DNA of 64,000 bases from Deltaproteobacteria bacterium HGW-Deltaproteobacteria-8 (GCA_002840405.1 PHAR01000005.1:11894-75893); one strand, 5' to 3'; positions 16,702 to 44,704 are shown, counted from the stretch's first letter. Program-made: numbers and translations. The notes: generated by a model from the sequence alone, not told the origin.

Positions 16702-19347
16702 ATGCGCTACGTCGGCATCTTCCTGGTCTGTCTCTCCTCCATCGCGTTTGAGATTTTCCTCGTGCGCCACTTCGCCATCACCAGCTGGTCGGAGTACGGT
16801 TACTGGGTCATCTCCATGGCCATGGCCGGATACTCGGTCAGCGGCGTGGTGCTCTGCCTCTTCGGTTCGGCCTTTCAGCGCCACGCGGGCGCCCTGTTCT
16901 TCGGCCTGCCCGTGGCCATGCTGCTGCTTTTGTCCGGCGGCTACGCCGCCCTCGGGCTCATCCCCTTCAACCCGCTGGAGCTCCAGAACGAGGTGCTCTG
17001 GCCCGGGCAGCTGGTGAACATCGGCCGGTACTACCTGGCCCTGTTCCCCTTCTTCTTCGCCTCCGGGCTCTACGTGGGCCTGTCGTTTCTGGCGGGCCAG
17101 GAGAACATCCCCAAGGTCTACATGGCCGACCTGGTGGGCGCGGGCCTGGGCGCCGCGGCGCTTCTCTTCTGCATGTCCCTCGTGCACCCTTTTCATGTGC
17201 CGCTGTTCCTGCTGCCGCCGTTGACCCTGGCCGCCCTGACCAGCCTGCCGCGCACAAGGCCCCCTGTCCGCGCCGCACTGGCCGGGCTGGCGCTGCTCTG
17301 CATGGCCGGGGCGGGCTGGGTGGTGCTGTTCCACAACAACGCCGCCTTCAGCCAGTACAAGCCCGTGGCCATGGCCATGAACGTGGAGGACAACCGCGTC
17401 CTGAAGGAGATCCGCTCCGCGCGCGGCTACTACCAGCTGCTGTCGAGCTACCTGGAGCGCCACGACCCGGACCTCTCCAACAACTACGAACTGCTCGGCG
17501 CCGGCGGCCCGCCCCCGGCGCTCGGCCTGTACCGCGACGGGGAGCGGCTGGTCTCCCTGCCCCGGCCAGGGGCCATGGATCTGGGCTACCTGAACGCCGC
17601 CCTGGATTCCCTGCCCTACCTGCTGCGGCCGCAGGGGCGCGTGCTCCTGGCTGGAGGGCGCGGCGGCTTCCGCCCGCGCGAGGCCCTGGAGCTCGGCGCG
17701 GCCTTTGTCGACACAGTGGAGAGCGACCCGGTGCTCCTGGCCATCCTGGCGGCGCATGCCCCTGCCGCTCCGCCTACGAGCTTCGCCTTGCGTCTGCCGC
17801 TGTCGGAGGCCGCCCCCGACACCGAGGCCGGGGCGGAGGCCGTGGCCGAACCCCAGGACAACGCCTCTGCCGAGGCTGCCGCCGGACCTGCCGCCGACCT
17901 CCCCCCTGAAGCCGCCGGGCACGACGCGCCCACGGGCAAGGCCACGCCCCCGCGCCTGGGCTCGCCCCTGGTGCTGGCGGCGAAAGCCGAGGTCCCGTAC
18001 AGCCTCGTGGACGTGTCCCCGGAGTTCCTGGACCAGGGCCAGGCCAACAAGTACCTGCTCACCAGCGAGGGCGTCGCCCGGCTCTTCCAGGCCCTGTCAG
18101 CGGACGGGCTCATCTCGCTGCCCATGGGCATCGGCGAGCTGCCGGTCTACGCGCTCAAGGCCGTGGCCACGGTGCGCCAAGGCCTGCTGCTTGCGGGCGT
18201 GGCCGAGCCCGCCGCGCACATCCTGGTGCTGCGCAGCTCCTTCACCGCGCGCATTCTTGTCTCGCGCCAGGCCTTCAGCCCCCGCGACATCGCCACGGCC
18301 CGGGCCTTTGCCGCGGAGCGCAGCTTCGACACGCCCTATTTCCCCGGCATCGACCCGGCAAAGGTGGAGGTCTACAACGACCTGCCGCCCGTGTCCTTCG
18401 AGACCGGCACCACGGAAGCCGCCAGGCCGGAAGGGGCTGGCGACACAGGAACCGGGGATCCGCGCGCACGCGACGCCCTCATGGACGATCTGGCGGCCTT
18501 CCTGCAACGCGGCGACACCAGCGCGTCCAGCTTCCGCTTCTTCAACCTCGCGCCCAGCACCCAGGACCGGCCCTTCTTCCACGAGATCATCCGGCTGTCG
18601 CGCATCCCGGCGGCCCTGGCGCGCATCGAGCTCTTGCCGCGTCAGGAGATCGGCTACCTGGTCAACGTGGCCGTGCTGGCCCAGGCCGCGCTGTTCGCCC
18701 TCATCGTGTTCCTGCTGCCCATGCTCCGGCGGCGCGGCATGGGCGGCCTGGGCCACGGCGAAGTGCTCTCCGGGTTCGGCTACTTCATGTGCCTGGGCCT
18801 GGGTTTCCTGTTCGTGGAGATCGTGCTCATCGAACGCTTCACCTTCTTTCTCAACGACCCGGCCCTGGCCTTTGCCTTGGTGCTCTCGGCCATGCTCATC
18901 GCCTCGGGGCTGGGCAGCGCCTTCTCCAGCCGCTTCGTGCCCCGGCCGCGCGCCGGCATCCGCCTGGCCTGCGCCGTGGCCGCCACCCTCGCCGCCTTCT
19001 CCGGGCTGCTCCTGCCGCGCCTGCTGGACCTGGCCCTGGCCTGGCCCGACCCGGCCAAGCTGGCCCTGGCCGTGGGCATCGTCGCGCCGCTGGGCTTCTT
19101 CATGGGCATGCCCTTCCCGCTGGCCCTGTCCACCTACCGGGGCGTCAGAAGCCCGTTCATCCCCTGGGCCTGGAGCGTCAACGGCGCCTTGTCCGTGGTC
19201 GCCACGCCGCTCGCCAACATCCTGGCCGTGAGCTGCGGCTACTCCCTGGTCTTTTACGCCTCCCTCGGGCTCTACGCCCTGGCCGGACTCCTCGCCCCCA
19301 CACGCCGGGAGCCCGGGGCAAACGCGCCGGAAGAGAGGCCGGAATAG
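16702..19347 (+). CDS. Spermidine-synthase-like SAM-dependent methyltransferase domain flanked by two membrane domains
   Basis: Seven N-terminal and several C-terminal TM helices, VLLAGGRGG/VDTVESDP central motif, and TQDRPFF. Confidence 0.75.
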   Translation: MRYVGIFLVCLSSIAFEIFLVRHFAITSWSEYGYWVISMAMAGYSVSGVVLCLFGSAFQRHAGALFFGLPVAMLLLLSGGYAALGLIPFNPLELQNEVLWPGQLVNIGRYYLALFPFFFASGLYVGLSFLAGQENIPKVYMADLVGAGLGAAALLFCMSLVHPFHVPLFLLPPLTLAALTSLPRTRPPVRAALAGLALLCMAGAGWVVLFHNNAAFSQYKPVAMAMNVEDNRVLKEIRSARGYYQLLSSYLERHDPDLSNNYELLGAGGPPPALGLYRDGERLVSLPRPGAMDLGYLNAALDSLPYLLRPQGRVLLAGGRGGFRPREALELGAAFVDTVESDPVLLAILAAHAPAAPPTSFALRLPLSEAAPDTEAGAEAVAEPQDNASAEAAAGPAADLPPEAAGHDAPTGKATPPRLGSPLVLAAKAEVPYSLVDVSPEFLDQGQANKYLLTSEGVARLFQALSADGLISLPMGIGELPVYALKAVATVRQGLLLAGVAEPAAHILVLRSSFTARILVSRQAFSPRDIATARAFAAERSFDTPYFPGIDPAKVEVYNDLPPVSFETGTTEAARPEGAGDTGTGDPRARDALMDDLAAFLQRGDTSASSFRFFNLAPSTQDRPFFHEIIRLSRIPAALARIELLPRQEIGYLVNVAVLAQAALFALIVFLLPMLRRRGMGGLGHGEVLSGFGYFMCLGLGFLFVEIVLIERFTFFLNDPALAFALVLSAMLIASGLGSAFSSRFVPRPRAGIRLACAVAATLAAFSGLLLPRLLDLALAWPDPAKLALAVGIVAPLGFFMGMPFPLALSTYRGVRSPFIPWAWSVNGALSVVATPLANILAVSCGYSLVFYASLGLYALAGLLAPTRREPGANAPEERPE

Positions 19348-19348
19348 C

Positions 19349-19405
19349 CGCCTGCGGCCAGGGCTCCGCCCCTGGACCCCGCAGCGGGTGTCTATTAGTA
19401 TACCC
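19349..19405. other. Left junction (attL-like) of the integrated element
   Basis: REP left half ends ...GGACCCCGC at 19382, then switches to AGCGGGTGTCTATTAGTATACCC. Confidence 0.75.
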
Positions 19406-19418
19406 TGCTGGCTTGGGG

Positions 19419-21557
19419 TTACTGCTTTTCAGAAATGACCGAGCCCACAACCCGTGCCAGCGTCTGTTGGAGTTCCTCAACCTGCACGGGCTTTGCCACA
19501 TAGTCATTCATGCCCGCCTCAATGAACTTCTCACGGTCTCCCGTCAGGACATAGGCGGTCATCGCGATTATCGGAACCTGCGCGTCAAGCACCCCAGAAC
19601 TGCCGCTCCTGATTCGCTTGGTGGCCTCGACGCCATCCATGACGTCCATCTGGACGTCCATCAGTACACAGTCGTAGGGACTTCCCCGCAACGCATTCAA
19701 GGCTTCCTCACCGTTGTTGGCCGTGACAACCTGATGCCCCTTCTTCTCCAAAATCAAGCGGGCACTCAGGCGGTTTATTTCTTCGTCCTCAACAAGGAGG
19801 AGGCGCAGTGGCGCACGTGTCTCACCTTCCGGCCTTGGCTGTGGAGCGGCAACAGCATGTGCGGCGAGGTCAAACGGGAGTGTCAGATACACTGTGGTGC
19901 CTCGGGACTCAGTGCTCTCGAAGGTCAGCGTCCCTCCCATTGCGTTGACAAGACGGAGGGCGATGGCAAGGCCAAGTCCAGCGCCCTGATGCGACCGGGT
20001 GAAGTCTCCCGAAACCTGAACAAATGGTTTGCATATCAGGTCTAGTTTGGCCTCAGGGATGCCTGGACCCGAATCACTGACCATGAACAGCAGTCGGACC
20101 ATGCCAGAAGGATGAGGCAGAAGTGAAGAGACCTCAATCTTCACCTCGCCCTGGTCGGTGAACTTTATGGCGTTACCAACGAGGTTGAAAAGGACCTGTC
20201 TTACCCGAATCTCGTCACCGACAAGGGTGGGGGGAACGTCAGGGGCCACGCTTATGACAAAGGACAGCCGCTTGCTCATGTTCAAGGGAGAAAAAGTCTC
20301 GGAAAGGGCTATGAAGATGTTTGCCAAAGCGAAGGGTTGGCTTGCTATGGGCATACGCCCCGCCTCAATGCGCGACAGGTCAAGAATGTCGCCCAGCAAG
20401 CTCGTCAGTCTCTGCCCTGCGCGTAAAGCCATGTCGGCATAGCATTCCACTTCGTTGGACAAACCGCTTGCCTTGATAACTTGAAGCATCCCAAGCATGC
20501 CGTTGAGCGGGGTCCGAATTTCGTGGCTCATGTTGGCCAGAAATTCGCTTTTTGAGCGGTTGGCGTTCTCGGCGATGTCTTTTGCCTGCAGAAGGTCGCG
20601 CTCCAAACGCTTGAGGTCGGTGATGTCGAAGGCCATGCTCAAAACAGTGCGGCGACCATCCAGCAGAGGCCCAAGCGGCACGGAAAAGAAAGACCACGTT
20701 CTCAGGCAACCATCCTTGCAAAGGATGTGATATTCGCCCTCATCCTTGCGCTCTTCCGTCGAGTACAAGGTGTCAATGTACGCCCGCACCTCTTCCCTCC
20801 GCGTGCCGTAAGCCCTCTGCGTCCAGTCGTAAATAGTTGGGATGTCGGCGAGTGTGTACCCAGTGCTTTCCGTCCAGGCGCGGCTCAGGGCGAGGACGAA
20901 ACCACCATCCGCATGGATCATTATCGGGAACGGGGATTCCTCAATGGCGCGCCGGAAGCGGGTTTCACTGGCGCGCAGCTGGGCCACGTTGGCAAGGTTT
21001 TCCTCGTGGTCAGAAAAGATTTTGACAATCAAAAGCATGGACAAGGGATACACCACCAGAATGGGCAGGCCGATTGTCTTGACAACCGTGACCGCAGTAT
21101 CAAACGGAAGAGTGAACATGGCCGCGAGCATGACCAGATGGACCAAGAAACCGAATCCCAGAATGTGCCAACTCGGGATAACGTCCGTCCTGCCCTTTCT
21201 CACAACATGATAAAGAAGGCCAATCCCGGCGGAGGAAAGGATGACTGTGATCCCGGTCCACATGCCAACGCCGCCCTGATACACCCGGCAGGCAATCGCC
21301 ATAGAGCTGGAAATCAGGCACGCGACAGGCCCGAAGAACAGGGCACACAGACTGAGAGCCACTGACCGGCCATCAAAAATCAAGCCTGGTTCGAAGACAA
21401 GCGGATTGAGCATGCCGATGACGGCTACAGATCCGAAGAGAAAACCTTGGAAGGCTTTGCCGGAGAGCGTTTCTTTTCCATACCGGCGCATTATGAAGGT
21501 TGAGACAACGCACAACGCTATAATCGTCCCGAGGTTGTGGATAAGAACTACAACCAT
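19419..21557 (-). CDS. Hybrid sensor kinase: 5TM LytS-type receptor, PAS, HisKA, HATPase, REC
   Basis: DGRSV in the TM region, [21 protein letters not shown] and REC VEDE/LMDVQM/KP. Atypical codon usage. Confidence 0.9.
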
Positions 21558-21881
21558 ACGGGCTCCTGAAAGCGGATATTATTGGGCCAAATCACCCGCA
21601 CATATAGGACTTTGCATCTCATGGGGATATTTTAGCACAAGCCCTGAGCGAGTATCAACACAATATCCCAATGCAATCAGATTTGATGTTTCGAGACCGG
21701 AATGAAATGTCCCGCGCATTCTCGCTCTGCCCTTGACAATTCACTCACCGCACGTGGTATGGTTTGTCCAAGGCCCTTGTTTTTTGTTTTTTTACAAAGG
21801 AGGATTCGTCAACGCCACCAGCTATGGCCGTTTGACATGAGTCTCACCGGAGGCGCTTTCGCGCTTTCCGCCCACACACCA

Positions 21882-21928
21882 CACCGTCTGTTTTCCTTGC
21901 GCAAAGGAAAACAGACGGTGACTTTTTT
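21882..21928 (+). terminator. Strong intrinsic terminator-like hairpin in the non-coding stretch upstream of the tyrosine recombinase
   Basis: CACCGTCTGTTTTCCT / AGGAAAACAGACGGTG perfect 16 bp stem followed by a T run. Confidence 0.7.
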
Positions 21929-22177
21929 ACCTACAGCCACATCATTTTTACCTAGAAAGACGAATAGACGGCCACCCTGCGTGTCTGCCTTTGGCTCGTG
22001 TCTGGCTCCTGCACCGCCCTCGGCGGCGGCGTGATTTGTCATGCCGTGGAGCAACTCGGATTGACCCCCTTTCGGCTTGTTCCTGCCGAGGCTACGCTTT
22101 GCGTGTTGTCTCATCGGAGCAGGCCCGCGAGTAGCCAGAAACATCAACCGCGCACCTCGTGCGCATTGGGGGCAGAC

Positions 22178-23122
22178 ATGGGAGACTCCCTTCTTTACGC
22201 AATCGGACGCGCCCGCATGCAGGGAAGTGCGAAGACGCGCTACCAGCATCGTGCCGAGGCGGCGCGCTTTGTGTGTGACCTCCGCGCAGCTGGTCACGGG
22301 GTGCAGTCATGGCGAAACATCAGCAACAAGCACGTGGCCGTTGTCATCGAAAGGTGGCGTGCCCGGGGTTTGGGAAACGCAACAATCAAAGAATATCTGT
22401 CTGGGGTTCGGGCCGTCGCCCGGGCTTACGGCAACGACACCATACGGACGGCGAACGACTTCCGGGGCGACGACGGCGGGCTTCTCGTCGGGCCGCGCAT
22501 CGGGGTGGACAACTGCAACCGCGCTGTGCCCGAAAAGGTATATGCCGCCGCTCTCGAAGTCCTTCGCGTCGGCACGGAAGACGCACAACGATTTGCTATC
22601 CACCTGCGCCTCATGCGCACCGGCGGCCTTCGACACGAAGAAGCACGCAAGCTCAACCCACTCCGGTGCCTCCTCGCTGATGGCCGTGTTTTCATCAGCG
22701 ATGGGACCAAAGGCGGACGCGAGCGGATGATATCCGCGCCGTCTCCGGCCTTCCTGACCGCTATCGAAGACGCCCACCGTGTCGTCTCACGTCACGGCAA
22801 CTTGATGCCCGACGGCATGAACGAAAGACAATGGGAAAAGCGCGCGTATGCTTTTGCCTGCGCAGCGGGTATTTCGCAGGCCGTGTGCGGCGCGTCACTG
22901 CACGGCCTGCGACACGCATACGCACAAGAACGATATGCGAGCATCACCGGCTTTCAGTGCGCATCCGCTGGCGGCAAGCTCGCCGAAGCGATGGAAATCG
23001 CAGGCACGGCCTGGCGGCAACTGGACAGTGACGCGCGACTACTCATCAAGGCAGAACTCGGCCACGGCCCGGACCGCGACGATGTCGTTGCCCGCTATCT
23101 TGGCTCACGATTTCGGATGTAA
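22178..23122 (+). CDS. Tyrosine recombinase (integrase-domain protein with N-terminal SAM-like domain)
   Basis: Catalytic set intact: GLRHEE (R), TKGGRER (K), LHGLRH (HxxR), ELGHG (H), VARYL (Y). Confidence 0.85.
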   Translation: MGDSLLYAIGRARMQGSAKTRYQHRAEAARFVCDLRAAGHGVQSWRNISNKHVAVVIERWRARGLGNATIKEYLSGVRAVARAYGNDTIRTANDFRGDDGGLLVGPRIGVDNCNRAVPEKVYAAALEVLRVGTEDAQRFAIHLRLMRTGGLRHEEARKLNPLRCLLADGRVFISDGTKGGRERMISAPSPAFLTAIEDAHRVVSRHGNLMPDGMNERQWEKRAYAFACAAGISQAVCGASLHGLRHAYAQERYASITGFQCASAGGKLAEAMEIAGTAWRQLDSDARLLIKAELGHGPDRDDVVARYLGSRFRM

Positions 23123-23123
23123 A

Positions 23124-23152
23124 AAGAAGAGGGGCCGGGAAGGCCCCTCTTC
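23124..23152. terminator. Terminator after the tyrosine recombinase
   Basis: GAAGAGGGGCC-GGGAA-GGCCCCTCTTC stem with an upstream A run. Confidence 0.6.
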
Positions 23153-23294
23153 GCGTCTCTGCGCCCCGAGCTCTCGCGCTTGTGGGTCTTCTTCCGTAAA
23201 CGACCCTTCCCCTCGTCTCGTGCCCATTTTTGGGGTCGAGGGCGGCGGCGCGGGCTCGACGGGATCTACTCTGATATTTCCCCTCCCGAACTCC

Positions 23295-23351
23295 AAAGAC
23301 AGAAAGGCAGTAAGAGAAAGAGTAAAGACAGTAAGAGAAAGGCAAAAGACA
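23295..23351. repeat. AG-rich direct repeats (iteron-like)
   Basis: CAGTAAGAGAAAG at 23308 and 23329 (21 bp period), plus repeated AAAGACA and AGAAAGGCA. Confidence 0.55.
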
Positions 23352-23566
23352 ATGTACCCTTGCCTTGGATCCAACCTTCAGCCCCCTTGGTCCTGTGCCC
23401 GGTGTATTCCTGTTAACCGTCGATCACTTTACATGTCGGGTAATTACAGGTCGTGTCGTCTGGTGCCGCGATTTGTTCGAAGGACGAGTGCCCACAGGCA
23501 TCCGCTGCGCAGGTCGGCAAGAAGGAAAGGGCCATGCGGCCCTTCCTGCTCACCCTGGTGCGCGGC

Positions 23567-24709
23567 TTATCCCAAGAGCGCGTTTCGTATTGCACCCGCG
23601 AGATGATACGCTACGGGCGGACAGACAGAATTGCCGAGGACCCCAAGCGCGAGATAGCCCTGTGGGGGCAACTGCCAGCCCGAGGGGAATCCTTGCAGGA
23701 TGGCGCAGTCCGGCACGGCAAGGCGGAAATGCCCATTGGGAGTCGGGAACTGTCGTGCGGCTTCGCGGGTTCGGCTGACGCCGTTCGGCCAGATTTGCAG
23801 TTTTGCCCAATTCTTGGCGCTTGCCTGTCCGCTGAGGACTGATGTGGTGTATCTTTGGCTCGTGAGCCCACTACGCAGGGTGGGGGCAAGGCTGTCAAAG
23901 CCGATGTCGGGCAGGCCAAGCGCCTCACGCGTTCCCATGCATTGCGGCAGACTGCCCGGAAAGCCAAGAAGCGGGAGCAGGCTGGCACCATCCGCTGCGC
24001 CGAACGGGCGATGTGTCGGCAGGGGGGCAATGAACTTGGCGGCGTCGGCATCCGAACGGAAACCGATGATGAACGCGCGCCGTCGCACTTGTGGGGCACC
24101 GAACGCCACGGCGTCGAGCGTAAAGCGGCGGAGCTGGTATTCTTGAGCGAACGGAGCGATGACTTCAGCGTGGAGGTGTGCGGCGAACATCGGATTGAGC
24201 AGAGTCGCGACGTTCTCAAGCAAGAACGCCCTTGGCTTGGCCTGTCGGATTGCGCGAACGTATGCCGGAAGCATGTCCCGTTCGTCGTCCTTCCCTTTCT
24301 GGTCGCCAGCCTGTGAGAATGGCTGGCACGGCGGACCGCCAATCATGACATCGATGCCTCGGAACGGCTCCCACGCCGCCGTCCGGACGTCTCCGGCTTC
24401 ACCAGTCCGCACTGTCCAAGTCGGGCGGTTCATTGACAAGCACGCCGCGATTTTTGGCAACAGCTCGTAGCACGCGACATGCCGAAAACCAGCGCGCTCA
24501 AATCCGATGTCGAGGCCTCCGCCGCCCGAGAAAAGAGAGAGGCAGTGCAAATCATGAAACGGCTGACGGGGCATCAAGCTGTCCGGCAACAGTCGGGGCT
24601 CGTTCAGCGGCTGGCCGGGGACGGCTTCACGCCCGCTCACTTTCGCGGCATGCGCTTTCAAGGCGGTCGCCCGATACCGCTCACGCCTTTCATTGTCGCT
24701 TTTGCCCAC
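23567..24709 (-). CDS. DNA (cytosine-5) methyltransferase, orphan
   Basis: Motifs I FSGGGG, IV GGPPCQPFS, VI ENV, VIII QVRRR and X LGNSV. GTG start after AAGGAAGGAG. Confidence 0.9.
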   Translation of the reverse strand: MGKSDNERRERYRATALKAHAAKVSGREAVPGQPLNEPRLLPDSLMPRQPFHDLHCLSLFSGGGGLDIGFERAGFRHVACYELLPKIAACLSMNRPTWTVRTGEAGDVRTAAWEPFRGIDVMIGGPPCQPFSQAGDQKGKDDERDMLPAYVRAIRQAKPRAFLLENVATLLNPMFAAHLHAEVIAPFAQEYQLRRFTLDAVAFGAPQVRRRAFIIGFRSDADAAKFIAPLPTHRPFGAADGASLLPLLGFPGSLPQCMGTREALGLPDIGFDSLAPTLRSGLTSQRYTTSVLSGQASAKNWAKLQIWPNGVSRTREAARQFPTPNGHFRLAVPDCAILQGFPSGWQLPPQGYLALGVLGNSVCPPVAYHLAGAIRNALLG

Positions 24710-24816
24710 GCGGTTGCTCCTTCCTTTGCACAGTCGGATTTCATGTAGGGATTTGTGGGGCTCGTCAAGCAGGCATAGCACCCCTTGCCGAGCATCTGCC
24801 GCCCGTTCTCTTCTTC

Positions 24817-25923
24817 TCACTGCGCCGACTCCTCTGCCAGCAACGCGCCTTCCTGCCTTTCCACGGCCTTCCATGTGACCTGCCCGTCCCGGATGATGAG
24901 GTGACGGCGGACGGTTCGGACATCGACATCCGCTGCGCGGGCAACAGCCTCCCCGGTAATCTTCTGTCCGGCTTGCTTCAACGCCTCCACTGCACCGGCA
25001 ATGGCCAAGCGACATTCCGCCGCACGGCATGCGGCGCTGTAACGCGCGCCTTCGCCCTGCCGCTGGCGGATGGCCGCACGACGCTCCTCGGCAGGCAGGT
25101 CGGTGCCTTTGAGGGTGGGTAACCCCATGACGCCATAATTCCGATCTGCCCGCGACTTGTAGATGTCTCCGTTTCTGACAATCGACTTCGCGATGTCCCA
25201 GTTTTCTTCAACTGGGAGCGGTGGGGTGTTCGCCCCTGCTTGGTAGTCGGCCAGGAAGGCGGCGAGTTCGTCTTCCGACGCGCCACCGACACGGTGGAAG
25301 TACGCGAGGGCGGCACGGAAGCTGGCGCAGTTTCTCTGGCCAGTATCATAGTCGAGCTGACGCCAATGCGGGACATCCTGCGGAGCGGCCTCAAGGCGCA
25401 ACGCTTCGAGCGTGCAAGGGCCGGATGGATATTTCACGGCTGTGTGCCTGACGAAAAACGGATTCTTTGCGCCGATCATGTGGACGCCGCAGGCAATGTC
25501 GCCGCCCAAAGCCCGCATGAGATTGCGCCTGACATCATGGTAATACCGACGTGACACCGGAGAAGGATGCGGCGGCAAAGGGCGCAGAAGAGGCCAAAGC
25601 AAGTGGAAGCTCTTGCCGGACAAGACCGCGAAAGCAGGAAGCGGGATGTTCAAGGCTCCGTAAGGCGCAGGGTCGAATGCTGTGCGCTGGAGTGCCAGCG
25701 CCTGCGTCTCTCCATCGACGGGGCGTGGCATCTTTGGCAGGTCGATGTCGACATGGACCCAGCAGAGCATGCCGGGGTTCAGGATGATGTAGGGATACGC
25801 CGCGACCTCGGCAGACGGGACGCAAAAAGCCGGCTCGTCCTTGGCTGGCTTCACGAAGACATGACCGGGACGAATTTCGAAATGGGTCTTGAACTCGTCG
25901 AAATATTGGGTGGAAATACCCAT
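24817..25923 (-). CDS. ColE2-type replicase (Rep with primase C-terminal and HTH regions)
   Basis: VHVDID, SFHLLW and KNPF motifs, GQRNCASF PriCT-like segment, and C-terminal HTH (TGEAVARAADVDVRTVRRHL). Confidence 0.7.
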   Translation of the reverse strand: MGISTQYFDEFKTHFEIRPGHVFVKPAKDEPAFCVPSAEVAAYPYIILNPGMLCWVHVDIDLPKMPRPVDGETQALALQRTAFDPAPYGALNIPLPAFAVLSGKSFHLLWPLLRPLPPHPSPVSRRYYHDVRRNLMRALGGDIACGVHMIGAKNPFFVRHTAVKYPSGPCTLEALRLEAAPQDVPHWRQLDYDTGQRNCASFRAALAYFHRVGGASEDELAAFLADYQAGANTPPLPVEENWDIAKSIVRNGDIYKSRADRNYGVMGLPTLKGTDLPAEERRAAIRQRQGEGARYSAACRAAECRLAIAGAVEALKQAGQKITGEAVARAADVDVRTVRRHLIIRDGQVTWKAVERQEGALLAEESAQ

Positions 25924-26085
25924 GAGACGCACCATCCTTGTCTGTTGGTTGATGAACAACAGACAAGGGTGGCACAGCTCCCAAACGTATTGCCAGTTTC
26001 CGGATGGGGGTCGCAGGATATTAGGCCAAGAAAGGTGTACGAAGCGCTGACGCCCCCTCCGCACGCCGCGCAGCGGGTCTTCCTG

Positions 26086-27780
26086 TCACTCAACCTCAAG
26101 CCGGGTGACAGCGCGACCGGCGAAGACGCGCGCAACGCTCTGTTTGCCGGACGGCCCTTTGGGGCCTTTGGTGACAAATGTCCATTCGCGCCCGTCGAGT
26201 TCGTAAGCCGTTCCGCTTCGCGTGGTGATAGTGACTTTGTGCTCTGCTTCGCACTCAACTCGCTCAATGACGCTTCTCATCTCCATCGCGATCCGCACTC
26301 GCCGGGCGTAGACCGCCTCGTCAGACATGTTGATGCCTTCCAGCGTCTCGGCATACGCCCGCCGCTCAAGCTCGCGCAGGTGCCGAAACTGGATGGAATC
26401 TTCCGCCGCCTGCCGAGCCTCGGCGGCATCGGCGCGGGCCGTGCCCATCTGCGTCTGGAGTTCCCTCCGCTTCTTCTGTTTGTCAACCAGTGTCCGTTCC
26501 AGCTCGTCGAGCCCGGCAAGCTCGGGGTTGCCGAGAAACTTCAGCGCATTTTGGATTTCGGCATCGACTTTTGTCAGCTGCGCGCCCAAGGCTTCGATTG
26601 TCTCCGCCTGCTTCTTGGCCGTCTCGCTGTGGACCCCGGCGGCGGCGACCACATCAACGTCCGAGAGTCCACCAGCCAGTACGAAGTTCTCCAACAGCAG
26701 ATAGTTGTAATACTGTCGGTTCTTGCAGTCCTGCCCTTCGAGGGCTCTACTGCAAACGAGGTAACGTGCCCAAGGCCGCACGCCGTCTTTGCGGGTCTTG
26801 TCGCGGGTACGGTCGAGATACCGCATGGGGCCGCCGCAGGCGGAACACTTCGCAAGTTTCTGAAATAAATTTGTAAACCGTTTGCCCTTCCGACCGGACT
26901 GCTTCCGCGCTCGCGTGGTCGCGATGTTTTGCGCGTGGTCGAAGAGTTCCTGTGGGATAATGGGCGGATAGTAGTTGGGGATGGTTTCGGTCCGCTTGCG
27001 CCCTTCTTCGGTCGTCACCTCGGGCAGGTATTCCCCGATCACCGCACGGTTGTGCAGGAGCTTCTGGATGTAGCTCGCGTGCCAAATCGGCTTACGCTTG
27101 TTCCATGGTGGGATACCTTCCGCCCGCAGAGTGCTGGCGATGACGTAGCGCCCGATACCGGAAACATACATTTCGAAGATTCGGCGGACGATTGCCGCAC
27201 GGTCTTCCAACAAATGGAACTTGCGACGCTTGACCACAAGCCAAAGCGGGCACTGGCGCGAAACCGGCACGCCATCCGCCGCCTTCTCTCGCTTCACCTG
27301 CCAGTTGTCCTTGGAGCGCATGGATTTGTGCTCGCTCTCGCTGTGCGAGCGGGCGAGGTCAGCCATAACAGAATGCATGACGCTGTATGACAGCTCATCA
27401 AGAATCGTGTTCTGCCCGGTAATCCCAATGCGGATGCCGCCCTTTGTCAGGGCAAGGAGCAGGTTGAGGGCGTCACCGGCCTTGTCGCGCGTAAGTCGGT
27501 CCAGTGATTCAACGATCAGCATCGACCCGCGCGCAATGACACCGTCTTCGACCAGCTTGAGAAAGGTTCCGAGGGCACCCTTACGGGAGTTGCCGCTCCG
27601 GTAAGCTGAAACGCCGAGGTCATTAAGCGTTTCGTCAATGACGAGGCCATGCCGCTTTGCAAATTTTTTGGAGGCGCGCAGCTGACGCTGTTCGCCCTCG
27701 CCGAGGGTTTGAGGAGTGCTGGACAGGCGGATATATGCATATGCCTTCGGTGCTGGGGCGGTGGGTGGCTGTTTGCTCAT
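26086..27780 (-). CDS. Large serine recombinase (resolvase, recombinase, zinc ribbon, coiled coil)
   Basis: AYIRLSS catalytic Ser, D.G.SAY, VESLDRLTR, ES..KS.R, CSACGGPM...CSR...C zinc ribbon. Alternative start at 27792. Confidence 0.92.
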   Translation of the reverse strand: MSKQPPTAPAPKAYAYIRLSSTPQTLGEGEQRQLRASKKFAKRHGLVIDETLNDLGVSAYRSGNSRKGALGTFLKLVEDGVIARGSMLIVESLDRLTRDKAGDALNLLLALTKGGIRIGITGQNTILDELSYSVMHSVMADLARSHSESEHKSMRSKDNWQVKREKAADGVPVSRQCPLWLVVKRRKFHLLEDRAAIVRRIFEMYVSGIGRYVIASTLRAEGIPPWNKRKPIWHASYIQKLLHNRAVIGEYLPEVTTEEGRKRTETIPNYYPPIIPQELFDHAQNIATTRARKQSGRKGKRFTNLFQKLAKCSACGGPMRYLDRTRDKTRKDGVRPWARYLVCSRALEGQDCKNRQYYNYLLLENFVLAGGLSDVDVVAAAGVHSETAKKQAETIEALGAQLTKVDAEIQNALKFLGNPELAGLDELERTLVDKQKKRRELQTQMGTARADAAEARQAAEDSIQFRHLRELERRAYAETLEGINMSDEAVYARRVRIAMEMRSVIERVECEAEHKVTITTRSGTAYELDGREWTFVTKGPKGPSGKQSVARVFAGRAVTRLEVE

Positions 27781-27891
27781 GGCAATGAGCATAGAGAAAG
27801 AAGACCGAAGAGACCAGGATTAATTGTGTTTTGAGGGCAACTTTTAGGTAAAACTTCACACATGCGCCCAGGATGATTGATTTTTTCTTGT

Positions 27892-27950
27892 GGGTATACT
27901 ATATGTATCCTGTATCCCGCTGGGGGCAGCGGCCCCCAGACCCCCATTTT
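27892..27950. other. Right junction (attR-like) of the integrated element
   Basis: GGGTATACT...GTATCCCGC followed by the REP right half TGGGGGCAGCGGCCCCCAGACCCCCATT. Confidence 0.75.
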
Positions 27951-28187
27951 ACGCCGAAGGGCTGTTTCAGGAGGAACCTGAAACAGCCCTTTTGGCTTGT
28001 GTGGGTCAGGGAGAGTCTCTTCGCTTTTTATCAATGTTCTCGAAAGGGGCCAACCGCGCGCGGGTCTTCGCTCGAAGACCCGCGCGCATGTTTGTGGCTG
28101 GGCGCAGCCGGGGCATGAAACCTGGTTGCGCTGGCCCAGGCCATACGGGGGTTCCAAGGGGCCTCAGGCCCCTTGGCCGCCGGAGGC
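27921..28187. repeat. Composite REP/REPIN-like repeat (right part of the split copy)
   Basis: Contains the AAGGGCTGTTTCAGG-AGGAA-CCTGAAACAGCCCTT hairpin and the GGCCAACCGCGCGCGGG module, and ends GGCCGCCGGAGGC. Confidence 0.8.
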
Positions 28188-28203: not shown

Positions 28204-29574
28204 CTATCGTCTGCTTGGCTTTTTGCTTGGCTTGCGCGGCGTGGCTGCTGTTTCGGGCGTGCCGTCCCTGGCCTGGCGCTTGAAGAAGTTCCAGAGCATG
28301 GCCGTGGCGTCAGGGTCCGGGGTGGGCAGGTCGCAGTAGCGGTAGCGCACGGCCTCGCCGCCGGGCCAGGCGTGGCCTCCGCCCTTGACGATGGCGAACT
28401 CCACGGCCGCGCGCCCGGTTTTCTTGTCCGGGCCAAAGCGCTCCAGGCGGGTGCGGCTGTTGCGCGCGTCCCGCACCTGTTGCGGCTTGGCGTTGAGGCC
28501 CAGGCCGTGCACCCAGAAATCCACCTGGGCCTTGGCCGGAAAGTCGTCGCAGAAGCGTCCGCTGCGCGGCTGGCCCTGGGCTGGCCCGAAGCGCGCCACG
28601 CGGTCGCGGTTGCCGTGGATGATGAGTACGGGCAGGGGTTCTTTGGGCAGCGCCAGTTCACAGGGCAGCTGTCCGGCCACCGAGGCGATGGCGGCCACGA
28701 CGCCGGGCCGCTCCAGGGCGAAGCGGCTGGCCAGCATGGCCCCGTTGGAGAACCCGGCCAGGTAGATGCGCCGTGGGTCCACGGGATAGTCGGCCTTGAG
28801 GCGGTTGATGAGCGCGGCGAGAAAGCCCATGTCGTCGATCTTCTGGTCGCGCGCGTAGCCGCAGCACATCCAGGAGTTCCAGGTCTGGATGCCCGCGTTT
28901 TCCTGGCCTTGCGGTGCGGCCGTGCCCTCGGGGAACACGGCGAGGAAGCCCGCGCGGTCGGCCAGCCCGGCCAGCCCGGTCTGCTGCATGGCCTGCCTGG
29001 CCGAGCCGCCCGCCCCGTGCAGGAATATGACCACGGGCAGCGTGCGGGCTGCCTGGCCCTTTTTCAGGGCGAGGCCCTTGGGCAGGCGCACCAGGGCCAG
29101 GCGTTCGCGTCCATCGTGCTCCAGCCGCAGCGTGTCCATTCCCCGCAAACTCTGCTGCTGCGGCTTGGCGCGCTGTGGGGCATCCTGGCTGTGTGCGGGT
29201 TGTGCGGGCGCGCCTGGAAAGGCCGAGCCGGGCAATGGCGCAGGCTGCGGCGAGGTCGAAAGCGGCGAGCCGGCGGGCTGGGACGAAAGCGCCTTGACCA
29301 CCGGGGCCTTGGGCTGGGTGGGGGAGGTGGGGCCGGTTTGCGTTGATCCAGGCGCGTTGGAGCGCGCGGGCGTCTTGGGGAAGCCCGTGGCGGTCTGCTG
29401 CTGTTCCGGCGCGTGGGTCAGGGAGTCCAGGATGTCGCCCATGGCCTGCCTGGCCGAGGAGGTCTCGGCGGCCAGGGCAGGGGAGGCCGCGACCAACGGG
29501 AGCGTCAGCGCCAGGGCAATCGCCAGGGCCAGGGCCAAGGCCGGAGTCGCGCGCTGGGCCGGAACCGGGCTCAT
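28204..29574 (-). CDS. Secreted PHB-depolymerase/LpqC-type alpha/beta hydrolase esterase
   Basis: Signal peptide, low-complexity linker, and FLHGAGG, AGFSNGA (Ser), HGNRD and GGHAWPGG motifs. Confidence 0.85.
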   Translation of the reverse strand: MSPVPAQRATPALALALAIALALTLPLVAASPALAAETSSARQAMGDILDSLTHAPEQQQTATGFPKTPARSNAPGSTQTGPTSPTQPKAPVVKALSSQPAGSPLSTSPQPAPLPGSAFPGAPAQPAHSQDAPQRAKPQQQSLRGMDTLRLEHDGRERLALVRLPKGLALKKGQAARTLPVVIFLHGAGGSARQAMQQTGLAGLADRAGFLAVFPEGTAAPQGQENAGIQTWNSWMCCGYARDQKIDDMGFLAALINRLKADYPVDPRRIYLAGFSNGAMLASRFALERPGVVAAIASVAGQLPCELALPKEPLPVLIIHGNRDRVARFGPAQGQPRSGRFCDDFPAKAQVDFWVHGLGLNAKPQQVRDARNSRTRLERFGPDKKTGRAAVEFAIVKGGGHAWPGGEAVRYRYCDLPTPDPDATAMLWNFFKRQARDGTPETAATPRKPSKKPSRR

Positions 29575-44379: not shown

Positions 44380-44704
44380 TGCCAGGGGCTCTGCCCTAGG
44401 TTGCCCAGGGGCGCCGCCCCCAGCCCCCCCCATTGCGCCGAAAGGGCTGTTTCAGGAGGAACCTGAAACAGCCCTTTCGGCTTTTGCGGGTCATGGGAAG
44501 ACCTTTTGCAGACTGTCCCTCGTCTAAAATGCGGCCAACCGCGCGCAGGGCTTTTCGAGGGTCCCCCCTCGGAAAACCCGCGCGCATTGCCAGGGCCAGT
44601 CAAGCCCAAGCACGGGACATGGGTGCCTTGGCCCAGCCATATGGGGGGTCCGGGGGCCTCAGGCCCCCGGCGGGGTTCAGGGGCAGCGCCCCTGACCGCC
44701 GGAG
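44380..44704. repeat. Composite REP/REPIN-like repeat
   Basis: Same hairpin modules as the other copies, between convergent genes. Ends GACCGCCGGAG. Confidence 0.8.

Follow-up and report, generated by a model that had tools for sequence, protein, structure and literature searches.

How can a site-specific recombinase come to use a repeat that its host carries in many copies as its integration site? This question is raised by a low-GC island in Deltaproteobacteria bacterium HGW-Deltaproteobacteria-8 (GCA_002840405.1, coded G000), a sulfate-reducing bacterium of the genus Humidesulfovibrio whose 3.51-Mb genome is 100% complete and lies in 13 contigs (C1-C13). The stretch of DNA analysed, here called the window, is 64,000 nucleotides long (C4:11894-75893; PHAR01000005.1). 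Within it, an island of 8,538 bp (window 19383-27920), which encodes a large serine recombinase (LSR), splits a two-hairpin repeat of the repetitive extragenic palindrome (REP) type within the linker ACCCCGC. From comparison of sequences, the island was very probably integrated by its own LSR at a fixed position in this multicopy REP-like repeat, and a clade of related LSRs uses the same docking repeat.

The edges of the island can be read directly. GC content falls from ~70% outside to 51-63% between the junctions. The left junction runs ...GCCGCCTGCGG-CCAGGGCTCCGCCCCTGG-ACCCCGC|AGCGGGTGTCTATTAGTATACCC and the right junction GGGTATACTATATGTATCCTGTATCCCGC|TGGGGGCAGCGGCCCCCAGACCCCCATT, both present where a sequence-only reading of this DNA had placed them, with CCCGC shared between the two ends (Table 1). 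That reading had also claimed that joining the outer halves restores an intact repeat. Joined, they give GCCGCCTGCGG-CCAGGGCTCCGCCCCTGG-ACCCCGC-TGGGGGCAGCGGCCCCCA-GACCCCCATT, which is predicted to fold into two hairpins and has the same modules in the same order (leader, hairpin 1, linker ACCCCGC, hairpin 2, tail) as the intact repeats at 221 and 7869; the copy at 44380, cited as a third likeness, is a looser variant only. No tRNA or Rfam family was found as a target at the insertion site.

The inner halves provide the attP of the element. GGGTATACT and AGTATACCC form a perfect 9-bp inverted repeat, as had been proposed for the outer arms. Both arms lie 16 nt from the CC within the core, and the symmetry axis of attP therefore falls on this CC, where the dyad score is 15/26 as against 9/26 on the next-best axis. 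The centre proposed earlier, the A of a CCCGC-A-GCGGG palindrome, was rejected: around it the outer arms are asymmetric (20 nt vs 13 nt), and the palindrome is absent from other elements.

We propose that the LSR would recombine an attP of ~52 bp, GGGTATACT-N16-CC-N16-AGTATACCC, with a chromosomal attB formed by the junction between the two REP hairpins, ...GCCCCTGG-A-C-C-[CC]-G-C-YNNGGGG.... A pair of LSR dimers would synapse attP with the double-stranded REP, in which the 3′ arm of hairpin 1 (GCCCCTGG) and the 5′ arm of hairpin 2 (CCNNNGGGC) would act as the attB half-sites. Because these arms are similar and inverted around the linker, they would meet the need of an LSR dimer for double-stranded half-sites with partial symmetry. 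Strand exchange at the CC would leave the 5-bp identity CCCGC at both ends without target duplication, and the orientation of insertion would be fixed, since CC is non-palindromic. The half-site register of the zinc-ribbon and recombinase domains leads one to expect a 5-bp shift of a shared motif between attB and attP; a comparison by eye revealed nothing convincing.

The LSR matches three Pfam models (PF00239, E 4.5e-15; PF07508, E 1.4e-18; PF13408, E 4.3e-9). Its catalytic residues R22, S24, Q28, D98, R99 and R102 are invariant in all eight clade members aligned, as are the zinc-ribbon cysteines C316, C319, C347 and C356. Two further LSRs were found in G000 by tblastn, at C13:17959-19569 (53% identity) and C3:146307-147941 (46%), and both adjoin ...CCCGC|hairpin 2. 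Three left ends, in which hairpin 1-ACCCCGC gives way to non-REP DNA, are found at C3:117915, C7:41050 and C13:53372. The pair on C3 bounds a low-GC island of 30.2 kb (C3:117,916-148,145; loci L004 and L005). Its cargo comprises a 1,057-aa STAND-type NTPase (AAA_22/NPHP3_N), a MORN-caspase (Peptidase_C14) protein, and proteins with SH3 and Sel1 repeats, which by their domains look like defence or signalling genes. C7:41051 to the contig end and C13:1-19767 probably belong to a single island that a contig break has divided. The C7 P′ and C13 P arms match at 19 of 26 positions, and both contig ends fall in other repeats, for which reason the joining is not provable.

The same arrangement recurs across the genus. 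The relatives compared are Humidesulfovibrio-type or Desulfovibrionaceae genomes coded G003-G019, of which G019 is the nearest species. Twelve other Humidesulfovibrio-type assemblies hold 33 LSR loci, 32 of them with a readable upstream flank, and ~31 of these 32 show P-arm...CCCG|C-REP hairpin-tail at 130-200 bp from the LSR start. All nine attL ends read hairpin 1-ACCCCG|P′, and the LSR gene adjoins hairpin 2 in every case. Five complete elements of 10.6-36 kb, from two sister species, have REP halves at both ends, the far end being hairpin 1-GGACCCCG|GTCAAG.... The identity core is CCCCG in these five elements and CCCGC in the window, C3 and C13 types, with CCCG as the overlap. All eight attPs that could be rebuilt have their best dyad axis on the same CC (C3C4 of A-C1C2C3C4-G5-C6), which lies inside either core. 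Thus the insertion sites of homologous recombinases, a check suggested by the sequence-only reading, coincide at CCCG|C-hairpin 2 in ~31/32 loci and in both G000 paralogues.

Near-identical enzymes are found at different loci. In LSR clusters of at least 90% identity the host flank is distinct in each genome (5/5, 4/4 and 3/3), and the five members of the C3-type cluster have five flanks. G000 holds three to four LSR islands, and another genome up to seven LSR loci. Two 5-kb contigs (L038 and L044) that have clade LSRs together with Humidesulfovibrio-type REPs are assigned in the records to a metagenome-assembled genome of the betaproteobacterial Methyloversatilis, probably through a binning error.

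In the phylogeny, 30 REP-inserted LSRs form one group with support of 100/100, outside which stand relatives of 33-45% identity. There are 11 such relatives, ten from other genera of the family and one from the sister species G017, and five of them interrupt a comM/Mg-chelatase-type gene. At these five loci (L021, L022, L025, L026 and L034, from other genera and G017), the LSR insertion lies just before or at the P-loop region of a comM/YifB-type gene. A comM-type gene is a classical LSR target. With the REP-inserted LSRs monophyletic and several of their relatives in comM-type genes, REP targeting looks like a single target shift in an ordinary integrase lineage.

The target itself belongs to an abundant family. 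G000 contains ~234 REP leader motifs, of which the commonest form has one hairpin, GCCTCCGGCGG-hairpin 2-AATCCCCAT. Some 38 copies have the additional hairpin 1 and linker ACCCCGC, and ~34 of these are free and four occupied. The repeats of G000 include one- and two-hairpin forms with many hairpin variants, lie in intergenic regions and are located after stop codons. They are, like REPs and bacterial interspersed mosaic elements, short GC-rich imperfect palindromes, intergenic, present in at least 100 copies per genome and often arranged in composite arrays. A profile search of G000 for a REP-associated tyrosine transposase (RAYT; Y1 transposase, PF01797) returned no match, with positive controls, and for this reason we call the repeat REP-like only. 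Most of the ~38 two-hairpin copies come directly after stop codons, so that a single clade of enzymes could insert several islands between genes without harm. Further, a terminator-like hairpin, GGGCTGTTTCAGG-AGGAA-CCTGAAACAGCCC (window 27957-27991 and 44447-44481), often follows the REPs and has 32 copies in G000.

An alternative is that the specificity of the LSR is relaxed or very short (for example CCCCGC in a GC-rich context), in which case the link to REPs would arise only because the motif lies mostly in REPs, and the hairpin arms would not be read. The hairpin 2 sequences beside the junction comprise at least 12 variants (among them GGGGGCAGCGGCCCCC and AAAGGGCCTGAGGCCCTTT), and known multi-targeting LSRs are relaxed (PMC10083194; PMC13137831), as this explanation would have it. 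We nonetheless consider it improbable, given hairpin 1 at nine of nine attL sites, a REP-type hairpin at a fixed distance at ~31/32 attR sites, and no insertion of a clade element seen outside a REP. In addition, the Pfam scan of the LSR found no DUF4368, a domain typical of relaxed LSRs, and the targets of window-type enzymes have a motif in common: the three that are known all start C[CT]GGGGG, two of them with the rare hairpin GGGGGCAGCGGCCCCC.

Of the ~34 free sites, the window-type enzyme may be able to use no more than some. Among the two-hairpin REPs of G000, only that at C3:152.56 kb nearly carries the rare hairpin (GGGGGCAGCGGTCCCC, one base different), and it is orthologous to the insertion site in G019; ~11 of the ~34 free sites start [CT]GGGGG. 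Other LSR subclades take a wider range of hairpins than the window type. The many landing sites envisaged earlier are perhaps overstated for the window subtype, whose known targets share C[CT]GGGGG and in two cases have the rare hairpin.

It is also conceivable, and in our judgement very unlikely, that another enzyme integrated the island, either the Integrase_1-type tyrosine recombinase encoded within it or homologous recombination, and that the LSR is cargo or a resolvase. A tyrosine-recombinase-like gene is indeed present, and the cargo cassette is also found without an LSR: a ~7-kb low-GC cassette outside the window (C6:110,500-117,500; locus L035, 6500-13500) has homologues of the PriCT-like (47%), kinase (74%), methylase (59%) and tyrosine-recombinase-like (72%) genes of the island. 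However, no REP halves were found at the borders of this cassette, despite its 72% paralogue of the tyrosine recombinase, and the C3 island and the elements of G012 and G017 share the junction without a close homologue of that recombinase. Moreover, the distance between junction and LSR start is 130-200 bp in every case, and the P arms differ from one LSR subclade to another. The C6 cassette, with neither LSR nor REP halves, indicates that the cargo module moves independently of the LSR.

Integration by the LSR into an intact REP predicts empty sites, and relatives supply them for two islands. G019 carries the window element, with an LSR 99% identical in amino acids; DNA identity is 93-99% over the LSR gene and 74-93% over the rest of the element. 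The host flank of the G019 copy is orthologous to G000 C3:152.6-155.3 kb, not to the window flank. At that orthologous place (G000 C3:152.56 kb) G000, G005 and G012 have an uninterrupted two-hairpin REP, to which the attR of G019 aligns exactly at CCCGC. Likewise, when the two flanks of the C3 island are joined, the product aligns over its full length (84-87%) around an intact REP in three sister species, G007, G003 and G017, and in G003 and G017 the empty site holds an intact hairpin 1-AACCCCGC-hairpin 2. Such orthologous empty sites, complete with hairpin 2 and tail and without an island, leave scarcely any credence for the idea that the half-repeats are part of the mobile element or that REPs spread later to the island borders, even though REP-like repeats do move in some bacteria and in the present case are often close to island borders, for the flanking hairpins vary like chromosomal REP variants and not like the elements, and there is no RAYT to move REPs. 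Taken with the clade junctions and the LSRs of at least 90% identity at different loci, the empty REPs of relatives support the earlier proposal that a multicopy palindromic repeat serves as attB.

Table 1. Features of the island and of the repeat that it splits (window coordinates).
Feature	Position	Strand	Remarks
Left (B) half of split REP-like repeat	19347-19382	+	hairpin 1 + ACCCCG junction shared with 8 other attL sites
Leader GCCGCCTGCGG	19347-19357	+	
Hairpin 1 CCAGGGCTCCGCCCCTGG	19358-19375	+	
Linker ACCCCGC	19376-19382	+	shared core CCCGC 19378-19382 (attL); putative crossover CC 19379-19380
P′ arm of element (attL inner half)	19383-19405	+	ends in inverted-repeat arm AGTATACCC, 19397-19405
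Hybrid sensor histidine kinase / response regulator (5TMR-LYT, HisKA, HATPase_c, REC), cargo	19419-21557	-	domain search
Small open reading frame, 110 aa	21702-22034	+	43% identical homologue in LSR-less C6 cassette
Tyrosine-recombinase-like protein (Integrase_1 / Phage_int_SAM_2)	21998-23122	+	no link to REP junction; 72% identical paralogue on C6
C-5 cytosine DNA methyltransferase	23567-25030	-	domain search
Protein with weak PriCT_1 (primase C-terminal) match	24817-26064	-	E 0.0024, short of Pfam cut-off
LSR, 568 aa (Resolvase + Recombinase + Zn_ribbon_recom)	26086-27792	-	right end of island
P arm of element (attR inner half)	27892-27920	+	GGGTATACT 27892-27900; core CCCGC 27916-27920 (attR); putative crossover CC 27917-27918
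Right (B′) half of split REP	27921-27948	+	hairpin 2 TGGGGGC-AGCG-GCCCCCA 27921-27938; tail GACCCCCATT 27939-27948
Second repeat module, terminator-like hairpin AAGGGCTGTTTCAGG-AGGAA-CCTGAAACAGCCCTT	27957-27991	+	host DNA, outside element

The remaining genes of the island are listed in Table 1. It carries two small open reading frames, among them one of 110 aa for which a profile search gave no family match. The true start of the methyltransferase is probably downstream of 25030. The PriCT-like protein, kept only in window-type elements and the C6 cassette, is by its sequence a possible replication protein. In nearly all other members of the clade a conserved gene of ~300 aa converges on the LSR (L001:16941-17831 on C13, L005:12211-13170 on C3, and 28 of loci L038-L064). 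It is absent from the window type (the window, L036 and L037), in which the PriCT-like gene stands in that place. This partner gene is a candidate accessory or directionality factor, judged from its position and conservation, and its pattern of similarity is at odds with the LSR subclades. Searches of Pfam, NCBIfam and PHROGs gave no family match above cut-off for either the PriCT-like protein or the ~300-aa partner.

Several points weigh against integration of the island by its own LSR into a REP. A search of 40 relatives with the joined flanks gave no exact empty site for the locus in the window, and exact-pattern scans of metagenome contigs gave nothing. The empty locus that the sequence-only reading had suggested seeking in relatives was recovered as intact REPs for the G019 copy and the C3 island, and not for the window locus. 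In relatives the left-flank gene is followed by one-hairpin REPs, and the right-flank gene lies elsewhere or inverted. We attribute the missing empty site to this loss of synteny, as only the left-flank gene is syntenic and the intergenic regions of G005, G007 and G017 differ. The element also encodes the tyrosine-recombinase-like gene discussed above, no recombination directionality factor was identified, and we infer the 2-bp crossover at CC from symmetry and shared identity. To these points are added two incomplete copies. The left end at C13:53372 has no LSR or attR to its right and no matching right end, and a remnant on C10 lacks an LSR. These two loci suggest that some copies have decayed or become rearranged.

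Around each of these loci further details can be noted. The esterase/PHB-depolymerase-like gene to the right of the window island (28204-29574) has the opposite orientation in G005 and G007 (L008 and L011), at 1.5-2.6 kb from the left-flank gene, and in G017 it is 28 kb away from that gene. The REP-rich intergenic region at the window locus is a rearrangement hot spot. The orphan attL at C13:53372 (L002, ~3373) reads hairpin 1-ACCCCGC|GACAAAGGCTGATTAGCACACCC, with a P′ arm that resembles that of C7. The genes that follow on its right are specific to the strain and encode a sugar kinase/cytidylyltransferase, a radical-SAM enzyme and a dehydrogenase E1 component, and nine relatives lack the DNA beyond the attL. 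What adjoins this locus in G019 sits inverted at C13:84191, which suggests rearrangement at a REP crossover point. On C10 (~164,390-166,800), close to a contig end, there is another copy of the ~300-aa partner gene (82% to that of C3), at 1.4 kb from a REP hairpin that adjoins AT-rich DNA; the locus probably represents what is left of a decayed island.

A broader proposition can be offered only tentatively, and we find it somewhat doubtful as a whole. Two-hairpin REPs may be genus-wide docking pads for at least four LSR subclades, whose attP arms would have diverged while the attB position and CC crossover were kept, and recombination between occupied and free repeats may rearrange the chromosome. 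The arm types of the subclades are GGGTATACT..., GGGTGTATTATT..., GGGTAAGATAAT... and TTAATACATCC.... With divergent attP arms on a shared attB position, one genome could hold several islands side by side. If the proposition is true, recombination of occupied with free repeats could explain both the orphan attL at C13:53372 and the inversion relative to the nearest species.

The system shares many features with serine integrases such as phiC31, Bxb1, A118/LI and SPbeta SprA/YokA. These are the combination of Resolvase, Recombinase and zinc-ribbon domains, a gene beside one att site, an attP of ~50 bp with an imperfect dyad around a non-palindromic central dinucleotide, and a short identity core without target duplication. 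The similarity of the LSR to solved LSRs is remote (YokA, E 1e-8). Classical serine integrases have one attB per genome, usually inside a gene, whereas attB here is a multicopy intergenic palindromic repeat. The nearest NCBIfam models are the SCCmec CcrAB/CcrC and XisF-type LSRs, which like the enzyme described here move or excise chromosomal cassettes; the scores are far under their cut-offs (53 bits vs 375 and 45 vs 900). CcrAB/CcrC and XisF-type enzymes act at a single site (orfX/rlmH and fdxN).

Multi-targeting LSRs offer a closer parallel in one respect. As in Durrant et al. 2022 (PMC10083194; for example Cp36), one LSR cluster of at least 90% identity occupies more than three loci, with several copies per genome. 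The multi-targeting LSRs of that source and the MTI systems (PMC13137831) have relaxed specificity, a TT core, AT-rich flanks and often DUF4368. The present clade, in contrast, has no DUF4368, a GC-rich target and a CC core, and appears to be specific for a GC-rich site of ~40 bp of which the host itself has made many copies.

Elements of the IS3, IS110, IS4, IS256 and IS5 families of insertion sequences are known to target REPs (PMC1525189; PMC12288879; PMC11208160). Those compared here are IS1397, ISKpn1, IS621, ISPpu9/10 and ISPa11 (Tobes and Pareja 2006, PMC1525189; PMC12288879; PMC11208160). For them too, REP copies are safe places to land between genes, and the point of insertion within the repeat is fixed. 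They are, however, moved by DDE or DEDD transposases and carry only themselves, and the IS110 types are guided to their target by RNA, whereas here a serine recombinase would move islands of 8.5-36 kb with cargo by conservative site-specific recombination. No serine enzyme was found in the survey of PMC1525189. Durrant et al. 2022 (PMC10083194) mention in one sentence that some LSRs may target sequences that occur at several sites, and give no example in the part available. Our literature search, whose coverage did not extend to subscription journals, found no report of an LSR using REPs.

These findings suggest a way for a site-specific integrase to become multi-copy with its specificity kept, namely by taking a repeat of its host as the target. 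As the repeat is intergenic, the insertions are likely to do little harm. The clade also constitutes a natural experiment of ~40 attB/attP pairs, in which four types of attP meet a single attB, and bears on how the zinc-ribbon and recombinase domains read attB as opposed to attP. For engineering, such repeats would offer the bacteria that have them as hosts with a native set of multi-copy landing pads, where large DNA could be inserted unidirectionally. For Humidesulfovibrio itself, the use of a host repeat would explain the accumulation of several islands per genome, with a cargo of sensor kinases, a methylase, a STAND NTPase and a caspase-like peptidase.

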